Source: Candidatus Woesearchaeota archaeon
GTDB taxonomy: Archaea > Nanobdellota > Nanobdellia > Woesearchaeales > SKGA01
Assembly (NCBI GenBank): GCA_046546105.1
Contig: JBKGYN010000002.1
Coordinates: 10,913 to 74,912 of the forward strand
Direction: 5' to 3'
Length of the DNA stretch: 64,000 bases
Below are positions 3,898-42,650 of the stretch, piece by piece. The notes beneath the pieces were generated by a model, which saw nothing but the letters and a program-made list of their open reading frames with translations, was not told where the DNA came from and searched no databases. Within the stretch, counting starts at the first letter, position 1. Each line of letters starts with the position of its first letter. A program made the translations under genes and the position numbers.

Positions 3898-6699
3898 ATG
3901 CAACATTCAACTTTTTTCAAGACTTCGCTTCTTATTCTTGCCCTTGTATTCTCGCTTCTCGCCCTCATTCCGCACGTTCAGGCTCGGGATTCTATTGATG
4001 TGGAGAATCGAAGCGTCAATGCTGATTTTGAGATAAGTGCTTCTTTCAGGACATTGTCCTTATGCGAATGTGCGACCTCCACTCAGAACCTACAGGTCTC
4101 AAACCCTGGCTCTTATCCGATCACAGTCCATCTCGAGAGCGAGAATGGCTATGTCCGTTTCGCGCAGAGTGAAGTTCAGGTAGATCCTGGTCGTACCGAA
4201 ACGGTCATCGCCTACATCAAAGCGCCGTGTGACGCCCCTGACAAGGACACTATCCTTATCAAGGCGACATCTTCTCTTGGTAAGACCAAAGCTTTCACTC
4301 AAGATATCGAATTTTCCAACTGCCAGAACCTTCGTGCTGGTCTTGCTGAACGTGAAGTCAACGCGAGCGTCTGCCAACCATTCTCCACCTCCTTGACCGT
4401 CAAGAACACTGGTTCTTTCAGGGAGACTTACGAGATTGCTGCTGCTGATTTCTCCGACTCTATCGTCTTGAGTGAAGACCGAGTGACTCTTGATTCTGGT
4501 CAGACTAAGGATGTTTTCATCTATTATAACCTGCCTTGTGACATCTACGGGGAGCATGATGCTGACTTTATCGTCCGTGCTGTGAAGAACAATCGCAAAG
4601 CTACTTTGAAGCAGACAATCAACATCCCTCAAGACTATGCATTCTCACTTGATCTTCCATCGCAGATGCCTGTTTGCCAGGAAGATGAAAAATCGGACGC
4701 TTTCCGGTTTGCCTTTACAAACGACAATAATTTCACCGACACATACCGGATAAAGGAGGATCTTCCTTCCTTCGCTGATGATGATCTTCCTCTTGTCGGG
4801 AGATTTTTTCCTGAGACTGTCACTTTGAAGCCTGGCGAGGATTATGTGAAAAACATCTCGCTCTCCTCTCTCGATGACGTCGATGAAGGAACGTATCCGG
4901 TTTCGTTCACCGTGACTTCTCGAAACGGTGACGTGACAAAGACTGCCGCTGGTAACATCTCTGTCTCTGATTGTCATGGCGGGGCGCTGTCTTTCTCTGA
5001 CACGACCGACAAGCTCTACGCCTGCGCTCGAGATGACTTCTCGAAAGAGTTCACGATCGCTAACACGGGTTCTCAAGATAGTGATTACGAACTGCTCTTG
5101 AACGCGCCTGATTTCATGACATTACCTGCTGACAAGCTCTCTCTCGATGCTGGTGAGAACGAGTCTGAAGAGATGGGGCTTGTCATTCCTGATAACATCT
5201 CTATGGAATATCCTATTACCTTGGAGCTTTACGGTAAAGGAGGTCTGCTTGACACTGCTGGATTCACGCTCGTTGTCGATGATCGTGAAGAGTGTTACGG
5301 CGTCGGGCTTGACGATACCTCTCAGGACATGCTCTATACCAGTGATAACATCACCTTCAAGGTGACCAATGATGGTACTCGCCATGGCATCTACACTCTT
5401 GACATCCTCAACGCTTCTGGCGTTCTCGATCTCAGTGCTGGCGAGCTTGGTCTCGGCGCTACGGAGACAAAGACTCTCAATATCATTGTCGATAAGGACG
5501 AGCTGAAAAACGCTACTGCTTCTGATAGCGATCTCATCGGCACTGTTGTCGAAAAGACCTTGATGGTCACTCACGAGCAGTCCGGTCTTGTCACCTACGT
5601 CCCTGTCACTATCGAGATTGTTGATCATTCCATTTGGCACAAGGCGTGGTCATACCTCGCTTCACTGCCTGCCTGTACGCTCATATTCCTTTCCTTGGCG
5701 CTTATCTTTGTCATCTCGCTATTTATTCTTGCCCTGCGCTTGGCTTCCGCGAATCGGTTCTTCGCCGCTCGCTGGCAGGTCCTTCTCTGGGGTTTGGCCC
5801 TTGTCATCGTTGCCTTTGCAATAGTCAGTATCATCTATGGCTTTCCTGGGCAAAGCACTTTTTACACGCAATACAACCTGACCACTGACAGCCTCAATCA
5901 CGTCTTGATGGTCGAGGACAGTTCTTATACTTTCGATTATGATGAGTACTTCTTCGATCCTGACGATAACATCGAGACCTACGGTGTTCGTGATGTCAAC
6001 GAATCCATCCTTTCATTCAGCATCAACGGTTCTAACCTCACCATTACTCCTGTCGAGGATTGGTATGGTGCTACGGATATCGAGCTATTCGTCGTTGACG
6101 AGTACAACGAGAGCGCCTCAAGCGGTCCTGTCCTTGTTGAAGTCCTTCCTCGCGAGGATCACACCGTCGTGAGCTTTTTCAATGCCGGTTGTGAGTACTT
6201 CAACGTCGCGATGCTGCTTCTCGTCATCATCGTGATCTTTTTTGCCCTTTCCCTTCCGAAACGTCCTGTGAGCGCTTCCCGGAAAAAAGCTTCTGGGTCG
6301 CGGCGTATCACTGCATCGCGGACTCTCTCCAAGCGCAGGAAACGCTCTGTTAACAAGAAGTCTTCCAAGAAGACGAGTAATGCTTCCTCTTCAAAGAAAT
6401 CCTCTGGCAAGAATGCTAAGAAGAAAACATCGGGTTCGACTAAGAAGTCGTCTTCAAAGAAGACTGTGAGAAAATCTTCTGCAAAGACTTCGAAAACATC
6501 TTCGAGCAAGAAGACCGGCGCTAAGAAATCACCCTCAACAAAAGCGGCTGTTTCTGGAGCTGTTGGAAAATCGTCTTCCGAACCTGATTCAGAGAATTCT
6601 TCCGCTCAACAAGAGAGTGGCAAACAGGACTCTGCAAAGAGAACCTCTGGCGAGAGACCGGAGCAAGCGCTTGATGACGATCGCAACCAGGCTTCTTGA
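3898..6699 (+). CDS. large surface protein with CARDB/DUF11-like repeats, two TM segments and a Lys/Ser-rich basic C-terminal tail
   Basis: 933-aa ORF preceded by a GGGGGACGGG run; signal peptide; recurring N(P/T)GS / KNTGS / ANTGSQ / TNDGT motifs typical of CARDB-like beta-sandwich repeats; TM segments around aa 580-640 and 770-790; C-terminal about 130 aa almost only K/S/T/R (KKSSKKTSNASSSKKSSGKNAKKKTSGSTKKSSSKK...). Confidence 0.7.
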   Translation: MQHSTFFKTSLLILALVFSLLALIPHVQARDSIDVENRSVNADFEISASFRTLSLCECATSTQNLQVSNPGSYPITVHLESENGYVRFAQSEVQVDPGRTETVIAYIKAPCDAPDKDTILIKATSSLGKTKAFTQDIEFSNCQNLRAGLAEREVNASVCQPFSTSLTVKNTGSFRETYEIAAADFSDSIVLSEDRVTLDSGQTKDVFIYYNLPCDIYGEHDADFIVRAVKNNRKATLKQTINIPQDYAFSLDLPSQMPVCQEDEKSDAFRFAFTNDNNFTDTYRIKEDLPSFADDDLPLVGRFFPETVTLKPGEDYVKNISLSSLDDVDEGTYPVSFTVTSRNGDVTKTAAGNISVSDCHGGALSFSDTTDKLYACARDDFSKEFTIANTGSQDSDYELLLNAPDFMTLPADKLSLDAGENESEEMGLVIPDNISMEYPITLELYGKGGLLDTAGFTLVVDDREECYGVGLDDTSQDMLYTSDNITFKVTNDGTRHGIYTLDILNASGVLDLSAGELGLGATETKTLNIIVDKDELKNATASDSDLIGTVVEKTLMVTHEQSGLVTYVPVTIEIVDHSIWHKAWSYLASLPACTLIFLSLALIFVISLFILALRLASANRFFAARWQVLLWGLALVIVAFAIVSIIYGFPGQSTFYTQYNLTTDSLNHVLMVEDSSYTFDYDEYFFDPDDNIETYGVRDVNESILSFSINGSNLTITPVEDWYGATDIELFVVDEYNESASSGPVLVEVLPREDHTVVSFFNAGCEYFNVAMLLLVIIVIFFALSLPKRPVSASRKKASGSRRITASRTLSKRRKRSVNKKSSKKTSNASSSKKSSGKNAKKKTSGSTKKSSSKKTVRKSSAKTSKTSSSKKTGAKKSPSTKAAVSGAVGKSSSEPDSENSSAQQESGKQDSAKRTSGERPEQALDDDRNQAS

Positions 6700-8752: not shown

Positions 8753-8943
8753 TTCTGGTGGGTGGGGGTGATATCCTCATTTGCTTTTGGTGCCTGTCTT
8801 TCTCGAAACTTCTGCTGCATATTGACTGGGACGAAAAGATGCCAAATGGGGACGCTGGGATTCCACGAGCTGATTCGTCCAGCTGTACCGGGGTGCGCCT
8901 CGCTACTGCTCAGCAGCACGAATTACATCATTGATTGTGCTTA

Positions 8944-9115
8944 GAGAGGGTGCCAACACTTTTGTGTTGAGCATGTTCAAATACCAGCTACTTTTCAAGA
9001 AGAACCTGGGGACGCTGGGATTCCCTTGAACTTTGTGAGAGGGTGCCAACACTTTTGTGTTGAGCATGTTCAAATACCAGCTACTTTTCAAGAAGAACCT
9101 GGGGACGCTGGGATT
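8944..9115. repeat. tandem direct repeat (93-bp period, 79-bp perfect copies at 8944-9022 and 9037-9115), each ending with the 3'-terminal 15 nt of tRNA-Trp
   Basis: The 79-bp string gagagggtgccaacacttttgtgttgagcatgttcaaataccagctacttttcaagaagaacctggggacgctgggatt occurs twice with identical spelling; copy 2 overlaps the tRNA-Trp 3' end; a third copy of ggggacgctgggattcc lies at about 8851-8867. Confidence 0.85.
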
Positions 9116-9235
9116 TGAACCCAGATCAGCCGGTATCTTCTGAATAGATTGATAATCATCGCCTTCATAGCCATGAAGACTCATCGCTCCATCCAACTGG
9201 AGCCGGCTATTCTGCCGGATTATACTACGCCCCCG
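9101..9235 (-). tRNA. tRNA-Trp (anticodon CCA) with an approximately 61-nt intron after position 37
   Basis: Minus-strand read: acceptor GGGGGCG/CGTCCCC, T8A9, T-arm CTGGG-TTCAAAT-CCCAG, anticodon stem GCCGG/CCGGC with loop CTCCAG interrupted by an insert; the intron start TTGGATGGAGC pairs back onto GCTCCA, as expected for a bulge-helix-bulge splice site. Coordinates within 1-2 nt. Confidence 0.7.
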
Positions 9236-9401
9236 TGTGTTCAGGCAGTTGATTTGGAGCCCTATCAGCTTTATAAATATTACTCCCTTCCGTTTCCTTT
9301 TTTGTCATTCTCTCTTTCGTGCCTTCATAGAAAGACTTATAAATACTTTTTAACTGTGTCCTTTTACAACACGATTTCATTGTAATGCATTATAGAAAAG
9401 G

Positions 9402-10034
9402 GTGGTTAGTATTAATAAGCGTCAGAAAGAATTGAATGATGATATAGGATCGTATCTTGAAAGGCGTCATTCTGGTGATTCCTCTGGTTCATCTTCTTTT
9501 TTCAAGAGAGTGGAGAGTCTGATTCCTTCGCGTGCCGGTTCGGAATCGGTTCCTGATATGCATGATACAGAGGCGACGGTCTATGACAAGCCTAAGAAGA
9601 AGCGTTTCTCTTTGCTCTCGATTTTCTCTCGTGGCTCTCGTGATCCGAAAGAATATGAAGAAGGTGATGAGGAGCTTGATGAGAGTGATCGCGAAGGCCT
9701 TCAGGAACTTGAGCATGAGATTGATGATGTCGAGCAGCAGTCTGAAGAGCTTGAAGAGAAACGTTCAGGGCTTTTCAGCCGGTTATTTTCCTTTCTTAAT
9801 TTCGGCGGTCGTTCTCGTGGGGAGTATGAGGAGGACATTCCTGAAGATCAGGTCAAGGAACAGTTGAAAGCCCAGGAAGAGAAGGATTCCTTGTATAAGG
9901 AGACTCGTGAGACTCTCAAGATCCTTCACAAGTGGATTAATCGTTTGCCTCCGCAGCAGATTGAGGCCTTCAAGAGATCGCCTGACTTCCAGAAGTATAA
10001 GGAATTGCTTGACAAGTATAACCTCATCAAGTGA
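9402..10034 (+). CDS. hypothetical acidic coiled-coil protein
   Basis: ORF with GTG start; highly charged (EEGDEELDESDREGLQELEHEIDDVEQQSEELEEKRSG); no recognisable domain; start uncertain. Confidence 0.4.
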   Translation: MVSINKRQKELNDDIGSYLERRHSGDSSGSSSFFKRVESLIPSRAGSESVPDMHDTEATVYDKPKKKRFSLLSIFSRGSRDPKEYEEGDEELDESDREGLQELEHEIDDVEQQSEELEEKRSGLFSRLFSFLNFGGRSRGEYEEDIPEDQVKEQLKAQEEKDSLYKETRETLKILHKWINRLPPQQIEAFKRSPDFQKYKELLDKYNLIK

Positions 10035-16017: not shown

Positions 16018-16214
16018 ATGATGATATTAAGGATCCTTCGTTGCCATAGTCCCTGCAGGAGATCTGTTGCGACTTTGCAGGGGATACTGACACTTTCACT
16101 GGGTGCTTCTTCCTTATTTAAGTTTTGTTATTTCTGGTCTTCGGTGCCCACTTGTTATTGTATTGTGTTTGCAGCACAATGTTTTTAAATACCTCTCACT
16201 GCAGACAACCTCAT

Positions 16215-18812
16215 ATGGAAGATATTGTTGTAGGGCGCAGTAAATCTGACTTGAAAAAATACGGGATGAAAGGCGCTATCTTCGTTGGTAAGCATTACAT
16301 CTCTATGGGTACCACTACAACGCTTTCTAACAATGTATATATGGACGTTGCCGGCGCTCACGTCGTTTTCATCTGCGGCAAGCGTGGCGGCGGAAAATGT
16401 CTGACTGGCGATACTCTTATCTCTCTTGCTGACGGTCGGGAAGTCCCTATTGCAGATCTTGAGCACATCGACCAGGATATTGTCGCTCTGAACGATGATT
16501 TGAAAGTGCAGCATGCTGGCAAGACTGAGTTTTTCAAACGCGAAGTCTCGAAATTACTCAACATCCGGCTACGTAGTGGCAAGGAATTGCGTTTAACGCC
16601 GGAACATCCTTTACTGACCGTTTCAGGTTGGAATGAAGCATCTGCTTTGAAAGAAGGCTCGCGTATAGCGACTCCTCGAAAATTGCCTTCATTTGGAGAA
16701 CACGACCTTCCTGAAAACGAAGTGAAAATCCTTGCTTATTTGCTTGCTGAAGGGCACTTATCCAATGGGTTTATCCTGTTCTCGAATACTGATTCGCTTA
16801 TCATGGCTGATTTCAGGAGCGCTCTTCAATCTTTTGACGCATCCTTAGATGTTAAACAGCATGGTGAAGGGTGTGTTCGGGTCATATCTTCTGGTGTGAG
16901 ACGAACAATTGTGAACTCCTCACGTAACGAAAAGGGACAATTCGGTAAAGGAGTCGTTTTCGATAAGAAATCTTCATTGCGCAAATATCTCGAGAGTGCA
17001 GGATTATATGGGTACAAGGCAGATCAACGGGTTCTTCCTGATCGTATCTTCCAGTTGCCCAAGCGCAAACTGGCATTATTCCTCAATCGTCTTTTTAGCT
17101 GTGATGGTACTATCTATCGTGATGGTAACAAGGACTCTTGGATAGTGAGCTATTCTTCAGCTTCTAAGAAGATGATCTATCAGATTCAGAATCTGTTATT
17201 GAAATTCGGTTTGCTTTCCCGCGTTCGTAAGAAGCAACAGAACGGGTTTACCAGTTATGAACTGGGTCTTCATGAAATCCATGTCCATTGGTTCCTTCAG
17301 GAAATTGGTTTTTTCGCTGATAAGAAACATCGCCAAGAACAAGCTCTTCGCAGCACTAAACAGCATAATCCTAATATTGATACGATTCCTCGAGAAATCT
17401 GGGACACGTATCGTCCGAAAAATTGGTCTGAAGTGGGTAAAGAACTCGGTTATAAGACTCCTAAATCTGCACGATCCTCGATCAGGCATTCTCCCTCTCG
17501 CCAGAAACTCGCTTGTATAGCGCGGTCAGATGGTAGTGTTGAAACAGGATTGCTTGCCGAATCCGATATCTTCTGGGATGAGATTGTTGACATCACTGAA
17601 GAGAACGGTACGTTCACCGTATATGATATCAGTGTTCCCGAGCATCATAATTTTGTTGCAAATGGCGTTATCGTCCATAACAGCTACACGATGGGTGTTA
17701 TCGCTGAAGGCTTTCACCTTCTTGAAAAGGCTATCAAGGAGAATCTTTCTGTCATCCTTCTGGACACGATGGGTATCTATTGGACGATGAAATACCCGAA
17801 CCACCAGGATAAAGAGCTTCTTGAAAAATGGGGTCTCAAGCCGCAATCGATTCCTGTCAAGATCTTCACGCCGGAGAAATACTATCACATCTACAAGAAG
17901 CAAGGCATTCCTACTGACGTTCCGTTCACGATGAATCCTGCAGACCTGGATCCTGACGATTGGTGTAATGCCTTCAGGGTCGATAAGTACAGCTCCCGAG
18001 GCATCCTCATCAACCGGACCATCCTTGATCTCAAGAAATCCGGTGAGAACTTCCAGATTCACGATATCATCAAGCGTATCAAGGAAGATCAGGATTCTGA
18101 GAAAGAGGATCGTGACGCTGTCATTTCCATGTTTCTCATGGCTGATAATTGGGGTGTCTTCTCGGAGCACGGCACGCCCCTTCACGAACTGGCTAAAGGC
18201 GGCCAGATCACCGTGCTTGACGTTTCCTGCTACGCGACCATGCCTGGTGGTTGGGATGTCAAATCGCTCATGGTAGGCCTTGTCGGTCAGCGTCTGTTCA
18301 TCGAGAGGATGGAATACCGTAAGGGCGAGGAATATGAGTCTGTCAGCAGCGCCACTAACTTCTTCAGTTCAGATGCTAAGAAAACGCAGGACATGCCTCT
18401 GGTGTGGCTTGTTATTGACGAGGCTCATGAATTCCTTCCTCGAAACGGTAAGGTCGCTTCTACCGATGCCCTTGTCACGATCATGCGCGAAGGTCGTCAG
18501 CCGGGTATTTCCCTCATTCTCGCGACCCAGCAGCCCGGTAAGATCCACACGGATGTCATGACGCAGTCTGACACTGTCCTCTCTCACCGGATCACTGCGA
18601 AGATGGATGTTGATGCTCTCGGGATGCTCATGCAGTCCTACATGCGTGAAGGCTTGACTGGTGAGCTTGACAAGCTTCCTCGTGAAAAAGGTGCTGGTGT
18701 GCTTTTCGATGATAATAATGAGAAGATGTATCCTATCAGGATTCGCCCTCGTTTCACCTGGCACGGAGGTTCGAGCCCTACAGCCGTCCCGGAGGATAAA
18801 GAAGAGCGATGA
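16215..18812 (+). CDS. HerA/FtsK-superfamily (DUF87-like) ATPase interrupted by an intein in the P-loop
   Basis: ORF 16125..18812 with probable ATG at 16215; extein Walker A GKRGGGK|S is split by the intein; Walker B VWLVIDEAHEF; LILATQQPGKIH (HerA/VirB4-type TQxP motif). Extein about 467 aa. Confidence 0.75.
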   Translation: MEDIVVGRSKSDLKKYGMKGAIFVGKHYISMGTTTTLSNNVYMDVAGAHVVFICGKRGGGKCLTGDTLISLADGREVPIADLEHIDQDIVALNDDLKVQHAGKTEFFKREVSKLLNIRLRSGKELRLTPEHPLLTVSGWNEASALKEGSRIATPRKLPSFGEHDLPENEVKILAYLLAEGHLSNGFILFSNTDSLIMADFRSALQSFDASLDVKQHGEGCVRVISSGVRRTIVNSSRNEKGQFGKGVVFDKKSSLRKYLESAGLYGYKADQRVLPDRIFQLPKRKLALFLNRLFSCDGTIYRDGNKDSWIVSYSSASKKMIYQIQNLLLKFGLLSRVRKKQQNGFTSYELGLHEIHVHWFLQEIGFFADKKHRQEQALRSTKQHNPNIDTIPREIWDTYRPKNWSEVGKELGYKTPKSARSSIRHSPSRQKLACIARSDGSVETGLLAESDIFWDEIVDITEENGTFTVYDISVPEHHNFVANGVIVHNSYTMGVIAEGFHLLEKAIKENLSVILLDTMGIYWTMKYPNHQDKELLEKWGLKPQSIPVKIFTPEKYYHIYKKQGIPTDVPFTMNPADLDPDDWCNAFRVDKYSSRGILINRTILDLKKSGENFQIHDIIKRIKEDQDSEKEDRDAVISMFLMADNWGVFSEHGTPLHELAKGGQITVLDVSCYATMPGGWDVKSLMVGLVGQRLFIERMEYRKGEEYESVSSATNFFSSDAKKTQDMPLVWLVIDEAHEFLPRNGKVASTDALVTIMREGRQPGISLILATQQPGKIHTDVMTQSDTVLSHRITAKMDVDALGMLMQSYMREGLTGELDKLPREKGAGVLFDDNNEKMYPIRIRPRFTWHGGSSPTAVPEDKEER
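16398..17681 (+). mobile_element. intein (Hint domain with LAGLIDADG homing-endonuclease domain), 428 aa
   Basis: Begins Cys (CLTGDTLISLADGREV) immediately after GGGK and ends VHN followed by Ser (+1 nucleophile); two LAGLIDADG-like motifs (LAYLLAEGHL, LNRLFSCDGTIY) in the middle. Confidence 0.75.
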
Positions 18813-28577: not shown

Positions 28578-28640
28578 GATGTGGGTAAGTTTTGTTGTTG
28601 TTTAAATATGTATTTGTCTAGAAAAATAGAAAATAAAAGT

Positions 28641-28800
28641 GAGCCCGCGGAGACTTTCATGCTGGCGCATTCGGTCGTTATCGACCTTGCTCGCCAACTA
28701 TTTGAACTCCGGACCACACGATTTCTTTCACTGACGTTCGGAACATTACCGGGCCGTCAATGTATCAGTCGTGCACTCCACCAGGCTAAGCTACGGGCTC
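28641..28800 (-). tRNA. probable tRNA (anticodon GAT, Ile) carrying two insertions: an approximately 40-nt intron in the anticodon loop and an approximately 47-nt insertion between T-loop and 3' T-stem
   Basis: Minus strand: GAGCCCG-TA-GCTT-AGCCTGGTG-GAGT-G-CACGA-CTGATA-[insert]-A-TCGTG-TGGTC-CGGAG-TTCAAAT-[insert]-CTCCG-CGGGCTC; all stems pair; the D-arm is a near copy of that of the adjacent tRNA-Asn; lies 6 nt downstream of tRNA-Asn on the same strand. Confidence 0.5.
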
Positions 28801-32631: not shown

Positions 32632-34590
32632 ATGGTGGTCCGGGCTAATTTCAGAACTCTTGTCTTATTGCTTGTTTTCCTGCTTAGTGTGCAGACTGGC
32701 TTTATAGTCTATCACGCGGTTGAAGTCATCTCGCCTGATATTCATGCCCGGGCGAGCGCGGGTATGTTCTCGCTATGTCTCAACTATCAGCCTGAATTCA
32801 ACTTCACCTGCAACACTTCTATGCGCCAGAACCATGATTATCATTGCCAGCTCAATTATTCTGACCCTGACAATGATTCTGTAACTTTTTTCTATGAGAA
32901 CCTCTCTGGATTTTTTGAAGCTGAGATCACCGATGATGGTGTCCTGACTGCAAATCCTGATCAGGAGATGGTAGGTGAGAGGGACGTGCTCATCGGTGTA
33001 GTTGATGAGAAGAATTGCTCAAACAGTGAAGCTGCTGAAAACGTGACTTTCGAGATTGAAAATGTCAACGACCCTCCTGAATACTATCGTCAGATAAGTG
33101 ATCTCGAATGGTCTCTTGACGAGACTTTCAGGGGTATCTTTCTCAAGGATTATTTCAGGGATCCCGATGGTGACCCGCTCTCCTACTCGCATTCTTTCTC
33201 ATCATCACAGTTTTCTGCCGACATCATATCCAGTTCTGAAGTTATTTTTTCCGCTGATGAGTGTGGCGAGGGTTATGTGACCTTCACTGCGTCAGATCCA
33301 TATAATGAGACTGCGCAAAGCCATATCATCAAAATCAATGTTCCTTGCGAGGAGCCTGAATCTTCATCCGGCGGTTCTGCCGGATCTACTTCCCCTGAAG
33401 AGTGCATTCCGGAATGGCGGTGCAAGGATTGGAGCGAGTGCTATCCTAACGGCACGCAAAAACGGCAATGTACAGATATCCATGGTTGTAGTGAGGATTA
33501 CAAGCGGAATTTCTGGAGGGAGTGCGAATACATTCCTCAATGTGAAAACGGTATTCAGGATCCTGACGAAGAAGGTGTTGATTGCGGTGGTCCTTGTCCT
33601 CCTTGTGAGACATGCGATGATGGTATCCTGAATAACCAAGAGGAAGAAGTCGATTGCGGCGGTCCGAACTGCCCTCCTTGTAAGAATTGTTCTGATGGTA
33701 TTCAGAACTATGGTGAGACTGGTGTTGATTGCGGTGGTCCTTGTCCTCCTTGTGAGACATGTGATGATGGTATCCAGAATCAGGGCGAGACTGGTGTTGA
33801 TTGCGGTGGTCCTTGTCCTCCTTGTCCTGATACTGAGACTCCCGCGCCTGTTGATGATCGTTCGTGGCTCACTGCAGTCCTCATCCCTATAGTGCTTGGT
33901 CTCACGGGCCTTGCTGTCATTTACCGGCTGTTCCGGAGGAGTATTCACGCTTTTGCTGCGAGGATGTGGTGGTATTTCACCAGTAAGGTGCCCAAACAGG
34001 TGCTTCTCACGGAAAATCAGAAGTCGTATTTGTTCAACGAACTTGATCGACTTCTTGGTGAGCAGCATGGCTCTTCTGACCTGGACGAATTCCAGGATGA
34101 TCTGGCTATCCTTTTCAGGAAGTTCTACTCATATCTGATTGATGAAGCCTATGATCTTGAAAATGCCAAAGAGAAGATCGTGCAGTTGAAGACGGTCAAG
34201 GAAGTGAAAAAATTCCTCGTCACGGGATACTCTGTCACGCTTGGTATTGAAAAGACCAAGAAGATGTCTCGGGAGATGCTTGATGTCCATGCTGAACTCC
34301 TGCGTGAGCTTGTGATTTCTCTAAGTAGGGTTGATCGTGAAGAGATTGCAAGAGTTCTTGATGAAAAGACTCCTGCTGAAAAACCAACGCTCTCTAACGT
34401 GCTTGGCTTCTTGTATAACAGCATTCTTGCCTTGCAGTTCAGCGAGATCGAGATCTCCAAAGAGAAATATCTTAAAGCCTTGTATCTCTATGAAGCCCTT
34501 CCTGTAAGTGATCAGGAGAACGTGTATTCGACGCTTCATCTGACATTCGGTCTTATCAGCTACGTCTCATCTTACGCTTCCAAGAAATGA
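32632..34590 (+). CDS. cell-surface protein: cadherin-like domain, four Cys-rich tandem repeats (CGGPCPPC), TM helix, cytoplasmic alpha-helical domain
   Basis: Signal peptide; VNDPPEY cadherin-like motif; 4 x about 31-aa units C-x2-C-x-DGI-x-N-x-(G/E)E-x-(G/E)VDCGGP(N)CPPC; TM LTAVLIPIVLGLTGLAVIY; about 220-aa cytoplasmic tail. Confidence 0.65.
   Translation: MVVRANFRTLVLLLVFLLSVQTGFIVYHAVEVISPDIHARASAGMFSLCLNYQPEFNFTCNTSMRQNHDYHCQLNYSDPDNDSVTFFYENLSGFFEAEITDDGVLTANPDQEMVGERDVLIGVVDEKNCSNSEAAENVTFEIENVNDPPEYYRQISDLEWSLDETFRGIFLKDYFRDPDGDPLSYSHSFSSSQFSADIISSSEVIFSADECGEGYVTFTASDPYNETAQSHIIKINVPCEEPESSSGGSAGSTSPEECIPEWRCKDWSECYPNGTQKRQCTDIHGCSEDYKRNFWRECEYIPQCENGIQDPDEEGVDCGGPCPPCETCDDGILNNQEEEVDCGGPNCPPCKNCSDGIQNYGETGVDCGGPCPPCETCDDGIQNQGETGVDCGGPCPPCPDTETPAPVDDRSWLTAVLIPIVLGLTGLAVIYRLFRRSIHAFAARMWWYFTSKVPKQVLLTENQKSYLFNELDRLLGEQHGSSDLDEFQDDLAILFRKFYSYLIDEAYDLENAKEKIVQLKTVKEVKKFLVTGYSVTLGIEKTKKMSREMLDVHAELLRELVISLSRVDREEIARVLDEKTPAEKPTLSNVLGFLYNSILALQFSEIEISKEKYLKALYLYEALPVSDQENVYSTLHLTFGLISYVSSYASKK
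33560..33840. repeat. near-identical approximately 93-bp tandem repeats (4 units) encoding the Cys-rich modules
   Basis: gttgattgcggtggtccttgtcctccttgtgagacatg(c/t)gatgatggtatcc recurs; units 3 and 4 are almost identical at the nucleotide level. Confidence 0.8.
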
Positions 34591-41581: not shown

Positions 41582-42307
41582 TCACCTGTCAATTGATGGT
41601 GGGAGTATGCTTCCTCTGAAAAGCAATGTGTGTAATGCAATCAGCATCATTGCATGTTCATCGCTACCTTGCTGCATCGCCGCTTCCAATCCTTTCTCAA
41701 TAGGTGTTACCTTGATATTTGCATCGTAGCCTTTCAAACTCACCGTACCTGATCTCACCTGGCATGTGTATTGCTGATTATTATATGTGAACTTGATATC
41801 TTCTGCCTTGGTCTTCATTCCCGGTCTTTGCTTTATGTTGCTTGAAACGATTTCATTTCCATTCTTATTGATCGTTATTGTCGGTCCGGTAGTCGCATCG
41901 GTAATCTTTTGTTTCATAGAAACAGTCCATGCACCTTTCAGTTCATATGAATATGTTGTCTTGTGCAAAGTTGTCTTGCATATTGCTTGCACTTCTTTAT
42001 CATTGAGATACGCATAGATTTTTTTCGGGAACCTGAGTCCTTCATGCTTGCTTATGCTGAAATTACTATAGAGTGCGAAATGGTTGTGTTGTTTTGAAAG
42101 CTCTGCTCTTAATGTTGTTCTTTTTTGTTTCTCCTGTTTTCGTGCTACCACGATCATGGCTGCAAACCCGATAACTAATAAGATGATGCTTGGTACTAGC
42201 AGCATATTGTTTCCGGAAATTCCTGTATATATCAGTGATATGACTGCTGCAATGATGCTGATGATAGTAATGACAGATCCTGTTGTTGGTTTTTGCTTCA
42301 TTCTCAT
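41582..42307 (-). CDS. hypothetical membrane-anchored protein
   Basis: N-terminal TM segments (VITIISIIAAVISLIYTGI, LLVPSIILLVIGFAAMIVV) then a soluble domain. Confidence 0.4.
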   Translation of the reverse strand: MRMKQKPTTGSVITIISIIAAVISLIYTGISGNNMLLVPSIILLVIGFAAMIVVARKQEKQKRTTLRAELSKQHNHFALYSNFSISKHEGLRFPKKIYAYLNDKEVQAICKTTLHKTTYSYELKGAWTVSMKQKITDATTGPTITINKNGNEIVSSNIKQRPGMKTKAEDIKFTYNNQQYTCQVRSGTVSLKGYDANIKVTPIEKGLEAAMQQGSDEHAMMLIALHTLLFRGSILPPSIDR

Positions 42308-42358: not shown

Positions 42359-42578
42359 CGTCTCTGGTGGGAGTTGAAGGTTTGTCGTCAGACAGGCTTG
42401 AGAAAAGCTGAGCTTTGACCCAATCGCGAAGCGAGTTCAACGGGACTCAACTTCAAAGAAGTTGAAAGAGCCTCTGGCGAGAGTTGAAGGTTTGTCGTCA
42501 GACAGGCTTGAGAAAAGCTGAGCTTTGACCCAATCGCGAAGCGAGTTCAACGGGACTCAACTTCAAAGAAGTTGAAAG
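42359..42578. repeat. tandem direct repeat, 110-bp unit x2 (3 mismatches), each unit beginning with a copy of the 3' end of tRNA-Thr
   Basis: Units at 42359-42468 and 42469-42578; the third occurrence of cctctggcgagagttgaa is the genuine tRNA-Thr 3' end at 42579. Confidence 0.8.
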
Positions 42579-42650
42579 AGCCTCTGGCGAGAGTTGAACT
42601 CGCGACCTCTACCTTACCAAGGTAGCGCTCTACCACTGAGCTACAGAGGC
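42579..42650 (-). tRNA. tRNA-Thr (anticodon GGT)
   Basis: GCCTCTG-TA-GCTC-AGTGGTA-GAGC-G-CTACC-TTGGTAA-GGTAG-AGGTC-GCGAG-TTCAACT-CTCGC-CAGAGGC-T. Confidence 0.85.

Follow-up and report, generated by a model that had tools for sequence, protein, structure and literature searches.

In the 64,000-nucleotide stretch of Candidatus Woesearchaeota archaeon DNA analysed here (contig JBKGYN010000002.1, hereafter the window), the tRNA-Trp gene is followed by an array of small, gene-free, hairpin-forming DNA cassettes, each of which is closed by a displaced copy of the last 16 nt of the tRNA gene (hereafter the core). Formally, the cores are tRNA 3'-end repeats that resemble attachment (att) sites, but what they bound are conserved, structured, cargo-less mini-cassettes that occur in arrays of variable size. 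Our tentative explanation, held with reserve, is that recombination in the T-loop of the tRNA may have made the structured cassettes, and that exchange between cores would then multiply or delete them.

Results

The tRNA-Trp gene and its displaced 3' ends

A tRNA match on the reverse strand at 9100-9234 scored 42 bits against a gathering score of 29 (Rfam), and ARAGORN, when introns were allowed, resolved it as tRNA-Trp(cca), placing a 62-nt intron after position 38; with default settings ARAGORN called no gene there. This bears out an earlier note on this DNA, made from the sequence alone, which had described an intron-containing tRNA-Trp followed by partial copies of its own 3' end. There are exactly three occurrences of the 15-mer GGGGACGCTGGGATT (8848, 9008 and 9101), against a mean of 0.08 in shuffled sequences, none of which (0 of 100) held three or more. 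The last 16 nt of tRNA-Trp are found again at 9007-9022 and 8847-8862, and the core so defined, AATCCCAGCGTCCCCA, corresponds in the tRNA sense to positions A58-A73. The displaced copies have 18 nt in common with each other (GGAATCCC...) and 16 nt in common with the tRNA. The copy positions given earlier, 9008 and 9101, are exact, and the third moves from 8851 to 8848 for the 15-mer and to 8847 for the 16-mer. The earlier count of three partial copies has to be revised to two displaced copies plus the real 3' end, and the long repeat said to contain two displaced copies holds the real 3' end and one displaced copy.

That repeat had itself been described correctly: it is a perfect 79-bp direct repeat (8944-9022 and 9037-9115) with a period of 93 bp and a 100% match. 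Of each 93-bp period 79 bp are repeated; the remaining 14 nt (9023-9036), which separate the two repeats, are unique and match by position the equivalent 14-15 nt of two relatives, L001 and L002 (described below). This unique junction indicates that the repeat in the window is not a fresh or plain head-to-tail duplication, and plain slippage duplication, which would leave no unique junction, was rejected for the window on this ground. Head-to-tail units without a unique junction are seen in the L001 array and in a second array at tRNA-Thr, a fit that allows slippage to account for the expansion of the arrays, not for their origin.

In the window, cassette 1 runs from the tRNA side through a spacer, an inverted T-arm copy, the block ATGCTC-hairpin-GGCACC and a second hairpin to the core. 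The inverted repeat, GCTGGTATTTGAAC, is the reverse complement of T-arm positions 53-66 at 13 of 14 positions, and the 5' part of core 2 pairs with it to form a helix that we call stem A. The first 63 nt of cassette 2 (8944-9006) are identical to cassette 1, and an 81-nt expansion (8863-8943) replaces the short hairpin 2. Coordinates are collected in Table 1.

Table 1 Features of the tRNA-Trp and tRNA-Thr loci in the window (CM, covariance model)
Feature	Position	Strand	Basis or remark
tRNA-Trp(CCA) exon 1	9197..9234	-	Rfam tRNA, 42 bits; ARAGORN with introns
62-nt canonical intron	9135..9196	-	ARAGORN with introns; comparison across relatives
Intron UGGAGCG, antisense to anticodon loop	9185-9191	-	
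Intron GAUGAG and GAUGAU, flanking a covarying hairpin	9180-9185, 9155-9160	-	
tRNA-Trp exon 2	9100..9134	-	Rfam; 15-mer search
Core copy 1, the real 3' end (A58-A73)	9100-9115	-	Last 16 nt of exon 2
T-arm segment G53-C66 (GTTCAAATCCCAGC)	9107..9120	-	Read from sequence
Cassette 1, 77 bp	9023..9099	-	CM hit 9007-9081, 89.7 bits; consensus fold
Cassette 1, spacer (18 nt)	9082-9099	-	
Cassette 1, inverted repeat (14 nt)	9068-9081	-	
Cassette 1, hairpin 1	9044-9066	-	
Cassette 1, hairpin 2 region with unique 14 nt	9023-9043	-	
Core copy 2, displaced tRNA positions 58-73	9007..9022	-	15-mer and repeat search; consensus fold
Cassette 2, 144 bp	8863..9006	-	CM hit 8847-8988, 62.7 bits, full model with long insertion
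Core copy 3, outermost displaced copy	8847..8862	-	15-mer and repeat search
Perfect 79-bp direct repeat pair, period 93	8944..9115	-	Repeat search
tRNA-Thr(GGU), 42578-42650, and its array	42359..42650	-	Two perfect 110-bp units and a degenerate third core

The same layout in related genomes

Fifteen related tRNA-Trp loci, the window included, were collected through the flanking GTPase gene and an adjacent conserved open reading frame (ORF) of 210 amino acids (aa); by this GTPase the window belongs with DPANN archaea annotated as Woesearchaeota, Nanobdellota or Nanoarchaeota, and the loci of the relatives carry the handles L001, L002 and so on. A layout of tRNA-Trp, 60-150 nt, and a copy of the last 16 nt of the tRNA recurs in 12 of the 15 (L001, L002, L003, L006, L007, L008, L009, L161, L164, L166, L167 and the window), and the displaced core is absent in L005, L011 and L144. 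Genome by genome, the displaced core tracks the 3' end of its own tRNA (AGC, AGT, AAC, AAT and CCG variants), with one mismatch each in L003 and L006; in most genomes the nearest core does not differ from the tRNA, despite lineage differences in the tRNA 3' end. The left edge of the repeat lies at tRNA position 57/58 in all 12 genomes and across cassette types, and the right edge falls between A73 and +12, such that the repeats measure 16-28 bp; usually it lies 4-12 nt into the T-rich trailer, and the repeats are then 21-28 bp long. The inverted repeat also matches T-loop position 57 of the tRNA, ATTTGAA occurring with TTCAAAT and ATTCGAA with TTCGAAT. Across the loci the cassette has a fixed anatomy of spacer, inverted T-loop/T-stem, (A/G)T(G/A)CTC-hairpin-GGCACC, second hairpin and core.

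Individual loci depart from this plan in informative ways. The closest species, L001 (GTPase 86% identical), carries at least four 94-bp units that are mutually 100% identical, in an array interrupted by a 100-N scaffold gap, and L166 resembles a tandem duplication of 1.6 copies whose repeat is 65 nt long. At L009 (8143-8286, reverse strand) the displaced copy is longer, comprising 18 nt of the intron 3' end and exon 2 as far as C56; the conserved hairpin module is inserted exactly at 56/57 and is followed by G57-A73. By its sequence this copy resembles a 5'-truncated tRNA-Trp gene broken in the T-loop, and the covariance model described below recognised it as the same cassette. The segment that carries the tRNA and cassettes (window 8753-9401) is inverted relative to the same flanking genes, the permease gene and the 210-aa ORF, in L002, L009, L011 and L167, and stands in the opposite orientation in the window, L001, L164 and L166; its orientation has changed more than once within the clade.

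Constraint and fold of the cassette

The central 47 nt of the cassette are 95.7% identical between the window and L001, close to the 95.2% of the tRNA intron, compared with 47% for the spacer and 42% for the tail. The motif GGATTTGAACATGCTC is unchanged from the clade of the window out to L166, whose 210-aa ORF protein is only 43% identical. From five cassettes RNAalifold predicted three helices, namely stem A, in which the inverted repeat pairs with AATCCC... of the next core, hairpin 1 and hairpin 2, with compensatory changes in 9 of 22 pairs.

A covariance model (CM) was built from the cassette sequences and scanned against ~400 kb of related DNA. Matches fell only behind tRNA-Trp, and included L003, L006/L008 and L009, whose cassettes look different by eye, as well as the long cassette 2 of the window. 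Across 12 CM hits, which were aligned by fitting to the model and so favour structure, 90.6% of pair cells hold standard pairs, as against 74.8% in 500 shuffles (0 of 500 reached 90.6%) and 32-49% in slid controls; in the same fitted alignment 12 of 22 pairs are changed on both sides, compared with a shuffle mean of 6.8 and 1-6 in slid controls. The central module of the cassette is under constraint by purifying selection, and its helices covary. Wobble cells (6 G-U versus 4 A-C) give no strand signal, and for this reason the fold may operate either as RNA or as single-stranded DNA. Single units have unremarkable folding z-scores in the window (-0.7) and only moderate ones in L001 (-2.7).

Copy number and module order

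The number of units changes by events with breakpoints in the repeats. L161 (GCA_046539405.1), at 99.8-99.97% identity to the window, has exactly one 93-bp unit fewer, a difference flanked by the 79-bp repeat; some copy-number differences, this one included, could reflect assembly collapse. L008 and L144, which are 95-97% identical, differ by a clean 162-bp indel flanked by a 25-bp repeat, such that what lies beyond the displaced core in L008 abuts the tRNA in L144. Arrays range from no unit to at least four, and units are 100% identical within a genome (as reported for the L001 and Thr arrays) and differ between genomes. Like cores together with species-specific units are the result of concerted evolution through repeated gain and loss.

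Order within the arrays is uneven. The degenerate cores are the outer ones: the last core in L001 and, in L002, L007 and the tRNA-Thr array, the third. A type C module, in which GCCTATGACRTGWCTGGC adjoins the core, is common to unit 2 of L007, to L167 and to unit 1 of L164, and in L164 the usual type A module follows the last core with no core beyond it.

Four Logan contigs (L162, L163, L170 and L171) represent the same species in two independent sequencing runs and end ~15-75 nt from the tRNA-Trp and tRNA-Thr genes. These contig ends indicate that both arrays break short-read assembly. One of the contigs, L162, has a single-base variant in the cassette spacer (GGTTTTTCTTG).

A second array at tRNA-Thr

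The arrangement goes beyond tRNA-Trp, as an analogous array lies at tRNA-Thr (Table 1). Its core extends from T54 to the 3' end of the tRNA, and every unit carries an inverted T-arm piece, GTTGAACTCGC, that can pair with the next core. No similar array was found at tRNA-Asn, at tRNA-Ile or at eight tRNAs in the other loci.

In the distant Nanobdellota locus L017 (~5130-5282, reverse strand), a tRNA-Thr(UGU), 73 nt and a 22-nt copy of the stretch from T-loop to 3' end follow one another, and this unit and the Thr unit of the window have the short motifs TTCTTGAAG and GGTCAAAG in common. The Thr array of the window stops a short distance upstream of an ORF (41582-42307) that weakly matches SLATT_6. 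A type III toxin-antitoxin repeat array was considered and rejected: the Thr array lies upstream of this weak SLATT-like ORF and the Trp array is without such a neighbour.

The intron as a candidate box C/D guide

The earlier note had suggested that the tRNA-Trp intron be checked as a box C/D guide RNA, and the GATGAG and GATGAT boxes that it named are both present (Table 1). Nine relatives have an invariant UGGAG(C/A)(G/A)-AUGA, then a covarying hairpin, and then the invariant GAUGAUUA. As read from the sequence, UGGAGC would pair with G31-A36 and the fifth nucleotide upstream of AUGA with C34, which points to a Cm34-type guide geometry in an intron that is short of the full box C/D set: its only boxes are of the GCGAUGA type and CAGA, a terminal pair of box C (RUGAUGA) and box D (CUGA) is missing, nothing guides position 39, and Rfam gave no C/D match at E values up to 1. 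The conserved RRAG-AU at the 3' end of the intron fits the bulge-helix-bulge splice motif and not box D. The suggestion is thus upheld for the Cm34 geometry and the two invariant GAUGA boxes, and fails for the terminal C/D pair, the position-39 guide and the family match.

In Haloferax and Pyrococcus the tRNA-Trp intron is a box C/D guide for Cm34 and Um39 (PMC4090602). The intron described here is like these in its placement at 37/38, in having C34 opposite the fifth nucleotide upstream of a D'-like AUGA, and in its conserved GAUGA boxes. In contrast, position 39 is a C with no guide for it, the terminal C/D pair is lacking, and a covarying hairpin between the boxes replaces the second guide.

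Neighbouring genes and other features of the window

The genes around the tRNA-Trp locus are housekeeping genes, with Pfam matches for an Obg-like GTPase, an AAA ATPase and DnaG; beyond core 3 lies an unrelated flank and then a convergent permease-methyltransferase gene. A replication origin was rejected, as the neighbouring AAA protein is not Orc1-like (Pfam). The product of the conserved 210-aa ORF (9402-10034, forward strand) is an acidic coiled-coil protein whose C-terminal motif, FKRSPDF..Y..L..Y.L.K, is invariant; the ORF adjoins tRNA-Trp in all 13 relatives compared for gene order, despite rearrangements. The protein matched no Pfam family and, as an acidic coiled-coil protein, was rejected as a candidate recombinase.

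Elsewhere in the window, an unannotated tRNA-Ile(GAU) with two introns lies at 28640-28800 (reverse strand), 5 nt downstream of tRNA-Asn. One intron is canonical (37/38), and the other, at 59/60 of the T-loop, shows a good bulge-helix-bulge motif; the gene was missed by ARAGORN and Rfam, and the 74-mer spliced in silico was called tRNA-Ile(gat). An 895-aa ORF (16125-18812, forward strand) contains an intein (Intein_splicing, 2e-27; LAGLIDADG_3, a LAGLIDADG homing endonuclease match, 8e-18). A 72-75-bp tandem repeat of ~3.5 copies with a 70-75% match (33574-33825, forward strand) lies inside a 652-aa ORF (32632-34590, with a Big_9 match) and appears to encode a Cys-rich repeated segment (CGGPCPPC...).

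Discussion

How did the 3' end of tRNA-Trp come to be repeated downstream of the gene, and why is the DNA between the repeats conserved? Integrating elements of archaea leave fragments of tRNA genes behind (PMC9897764, PMC3293823), and elements can accrete in tandem at repeated tRNA or tmRNA 3' ends (PMC5704250, PMC3146451). We hypothesize that the first duplication of the core arose by site-specific, att-type recombination in the T-loop, a kind of recombination in which insertion can leave the tRNA gene intact. The cassettes would then be either relics of integrative elements in an extremely reduced form or miniature derivatives that are not autonomous, and in the latter case recognition by a recombinase encoded elsewhere would be required. 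Once two cores were present, whole units could be added or removed by slippage or unequal exchange, either from core to core or between the longer repeats of 65-94 bp, and such gain and loss would homogenise the copies and keep the displaced core identical to the working end of the tRNA. On this scheme the perfect 79-bp repeat of the window may represent one recent gain or, equivalently, the single-unit L161 one recent loss.

The footprint of att-type recombination is present in several respects. A direct repeat of the 3' part of the tRNA runs from a loop to or past the 3' end with the gene intact, and filled and empty alleles are precise (L008/L144, and window/L161 if the latter is not an assembly collapse). 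The fixed left edge in the T-loop, the variable right edge, the intact tRNA and the precise empty sites match this kind of recombination, as do the older outer copies, the shuffled modules and the local inversions. With regard to miniature non-autonomous elements comparable to cis-mobilizable elements (CIMEs), the cassettes have repeats at their flanks, carry no genes and are internally constrained, and neither mobility in trans nor copies at new sites were seen. The earlier note had offered the scar of integrase activity as one reading, and the T-loop start, the extension usually 4-12 nt past the gene end and the precise presence or absence between close strains agree with it; the recurrence of the layout in 12 of 15 loci, with neither cargo nor integrase and with the segment under constraint, does not. 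Its other reading, tandem duplication of the 3' flank, fares similarly: it accounts for the changes in copy number and leaves the first duplication and the unique 14-nt junction unexplained.

Several observations weigh against an origin by att-type recombination. A Pfam search that covered 49 of the 51 ORFs in the window with a length of 100 aa or more turned up no transposase, no recombinase of the tyrosine or serine type and no other mobile-element gene, and no integrase or transposase was among the called genes beside the related loci. As the earlier note had stated for the window, there is no cargo: the segments between cores are gene-free in all 15 loci, and all units are 82-162 bp and non-coding. 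Core-plus-module patterns had no match in plasmid records, phage records or viral contigs (IMG/VR), collections that may hold few DPANN elements. A pattern of the form GAACATGCTC-N(8-30)-GGCACC was too loose for the viral contigs and gave chance matches only, and a search for the type C motif gave two matches, both by chance in coding DNA. The cassette is not dispersed, as the CM scan of ~400 kb of related DNA found it nowhere but behind tRNA-Trp. Nor is it decaying, with a centre as conserved as the functional intron and hairpins that covary, which is unexpected of passive scars and of double-stranded att arms, in which hairpin complementarity is not needed. Finally, the inverted repeat lies 25-41 nt from its partner, too far for the core site of a tyrosine recombinase. 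Our confidence in recombination at the T-loop is held down by the conservation of the arrangement without an element ever being found, and by the purifying selection and hairpin covariation.

The main alternative hypothesis, less likely but to be taken seriously, is that the cassette is a trailer element with a function for the host at tRNA-Trp and similarly at tRNA-Thr, acting either as a structured RNA made by read-through from the promoter of the tRNA or as a protein-binding or hairpin element at the level of DNA. The inverted T-arm would pair with a built-in 3' strand of the T-loop and T-stem and leave the acceptor 3' strand as a tail, with possible roles in 3'-end processing, in termination or in shielding the T-arm of the tRNA from the inverted repeat, and the arrays would have formed by slippage and been kept alike through concerted evolution. 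The intron-like conservation of the central module, the identity of GGATTTGAACATGCTC as far as L166, the three-helix fold with its compensatory changes, the inverted repeat that co-varies with position 57 of the tRNA (G versus A), the strict tie to tRNA-Trp and the lack of mobile-element genes nearby all argue for such an element. So does the comparison of relatives: a tandem arrangement universally conserved in relatives with no element ever found there had been named beforehand as a sign of a structural or terminator role, and such is largely the case, the layout recurring in 12 of 15 loci without an integrated element and the displaced core being absent from three. However, the cassettes contain no strong TTATAAA-type promoter of the lineage, several genomes have a T7-T9 tract directly after the tRNA and upstream of the cassette, the wobble cells give no strand signal, and no Rfam family matches. 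The element is also dispensable (L144, L005 and L011), its outer cores decay, cassette type and order vary between genomes, and the single-unit folding z-scores are those given above.

Narrower functional candidates were rejected. No intrinsic terminator is predicted, and an independent small-RNA gene is not indicated by any TTATAAA promoter of the lineage type in the cassettes, H/ACA or C/D boxes, Rfam match or strand bias in the wobble cells. For a split-tRNA 3' half with a complementary leader, the window holds no partner 5' half and no second copy of the leader. An IS200/IS605 hairpin element, or an IS91-type insertion at GAAC/GTTC, is not borne out by the flanking tetranucleotide, which is inconsistent between L009 and the other loci, or by any transposase, and a retroviral-type primer-binding site on the opposite strand lacks a complement of CCA.

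It is rather unlikely that the cassettes constitute an undescribed class, either of miniature, non-coding, fold-defined recombination cassettes that target the T-loop of tRNA genes in DPANN archaea in an attC-like or hairpin-dependent manner, with a recombinase encoded elsewhere, and accrete into arrays, or of a conserved tRNA-trailer RNA that mimics the 3' half of its own tRNA.

We regard as quite improbable a further proposal, in which the array is a by-product of disruption and repair of the tRNA gene: an insertion in the T-loop, whether a former or failed bulge-helix-bulge intron or another small insertion, would have been followed by a partial duplication that restored the gene upstream and left the interrupted 3' part behind as a cassette. 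An archaeal bulge-helix-bulge intron is marked by two 3-nt bulges separated by a 4-bp helix. No such motif could be drawn at the cassette borders of the window, L001 or L009 when these were compared by hand with the tRNA-Ile intron, and the same hand comparison, made without a dedicated search program, found no UGAA-type partner 3 nt upstream of the displaced core; a T-loop intron or alternative 3' exon was rejected on this basis. Moreover, the fragment to the left of the module is usually an inverted, not a direct, piece of the T-arm, and the proposal leaves the conservation of the module and the several cassette types unexplained. What speaks for it is the longer partial gene copy of L009, with the module at 56/57 in what the CM recognises as the same cassette, the genuine T-loop intron at 59/60 of the tRNA-Ile(GAU) described above, and the model for Caldiarchaeum tRNA-Thr, in which element integration leads to intron gain and the scattering of fragments (PMC3293823).

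Chance slippage duplication of the 3' flank, or an artefact of repeat assembly, is hardly credible. In its favour, contigs end at the arrays, L001 has an N gap, L161 may be collapsed and L166 looks like a 1.6-copy duplication. Against it, neither an artefact nor a simple duplication can make a 14-nt junction (9023-9036) that is positionally homologous to those of L001 and L002, the layout was seen again in 12 independent assemblies and beside a second tRNA, and chance falls far short of explaining the three occurrences of the 15-mer.

Partial 3' ends of tRNA genes are usually taken as dead scars left by integrated viruses or plasmids, and here the intervening DNA is tiny and gene-free, yet conserved and structured. 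The cassettes are linked to particular tRNAs (Trp and Thr), and their number differs between near-identical strains. If they are mobile, they would be the smallest att-bounded elements known and would hint at a recombinase or virus of Woesearchaeota that has yet to be seen; if they belong to the host, they would be a new tRNA-trailer structure in organisms whose tRNA genes, with introns even in the T-loop, are already unusual. In practice, arrays that break short-read assemblies can mislead the annotation of prophage borders and of tRNA fragments in DPANN genomes.

Comparison with known systems

Integron attC sites have the order R''(RYYYAAC)...R'(GTTRRRY), recombine at G|TT, and accompany ORF cassettes and the integrase IntI. 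The cassettes described here are like attC sites in their units of ~60-140 bp, in the conservation of fold and not of sequence, and in their arrays beside a fixed site, and the pair ATTTGAAC / GTTCAAAT resembles the RYYYAAC / GTTRRRY pair. Identity with attC was nevertheless rejected, as the order of the boxes is reversed, duplications of 16-28 bp are not made by integrons, and there are neither ORF cassettes nor IntI.

For the tRNA-Thr gene of Caldiarchaeum subterraneum there is a model of disruption by integration of a mobile element, a 1.8-kb element that encodes a recombinase (PMC3293823). Shared with the present loci are the heterogeneity of the locus in the population, the tRNA fragments that accompany an intact gene and the connection with non-canonical introns, but in the present loci no recombinase was found and the fragments are 3' ends in tandem. 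CIMEs and tandem islands are known from the ssrA 3' end of Dehalococcoides (PMC5704250, PMC3146451). Like these, the cassettes are flanked by att-type repeats, have no integrase of their own, and form arrays at a repeated tRNA or tmRNA 3' end in which the outer sites are older. Known CIMEs are kilobases long and carry genes, whereas here no cognate element bearing an integrase was found, and a unit of ~93 bp would be close to the smallest that can physically be excised as a circle.

A close formal parallel in archaea is given by integrative viruses and plasmids, for example those of Thermococcaceae and Sulfolobus, whose attL and attR sites are tRNA 3' fragments (PMC9897764, PMC8371274). The direct repeat of the 3' part of the tRNA from a loop to or past the 3' end, the intact gene, and the precise filled and empty alleles are alike in both. 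The cassettes differ in their size of 82-162 bp, with no integrase or cargo in any genome, and in that sequence and fold are conserved across deep divergence in homogeneous tandem arrays.

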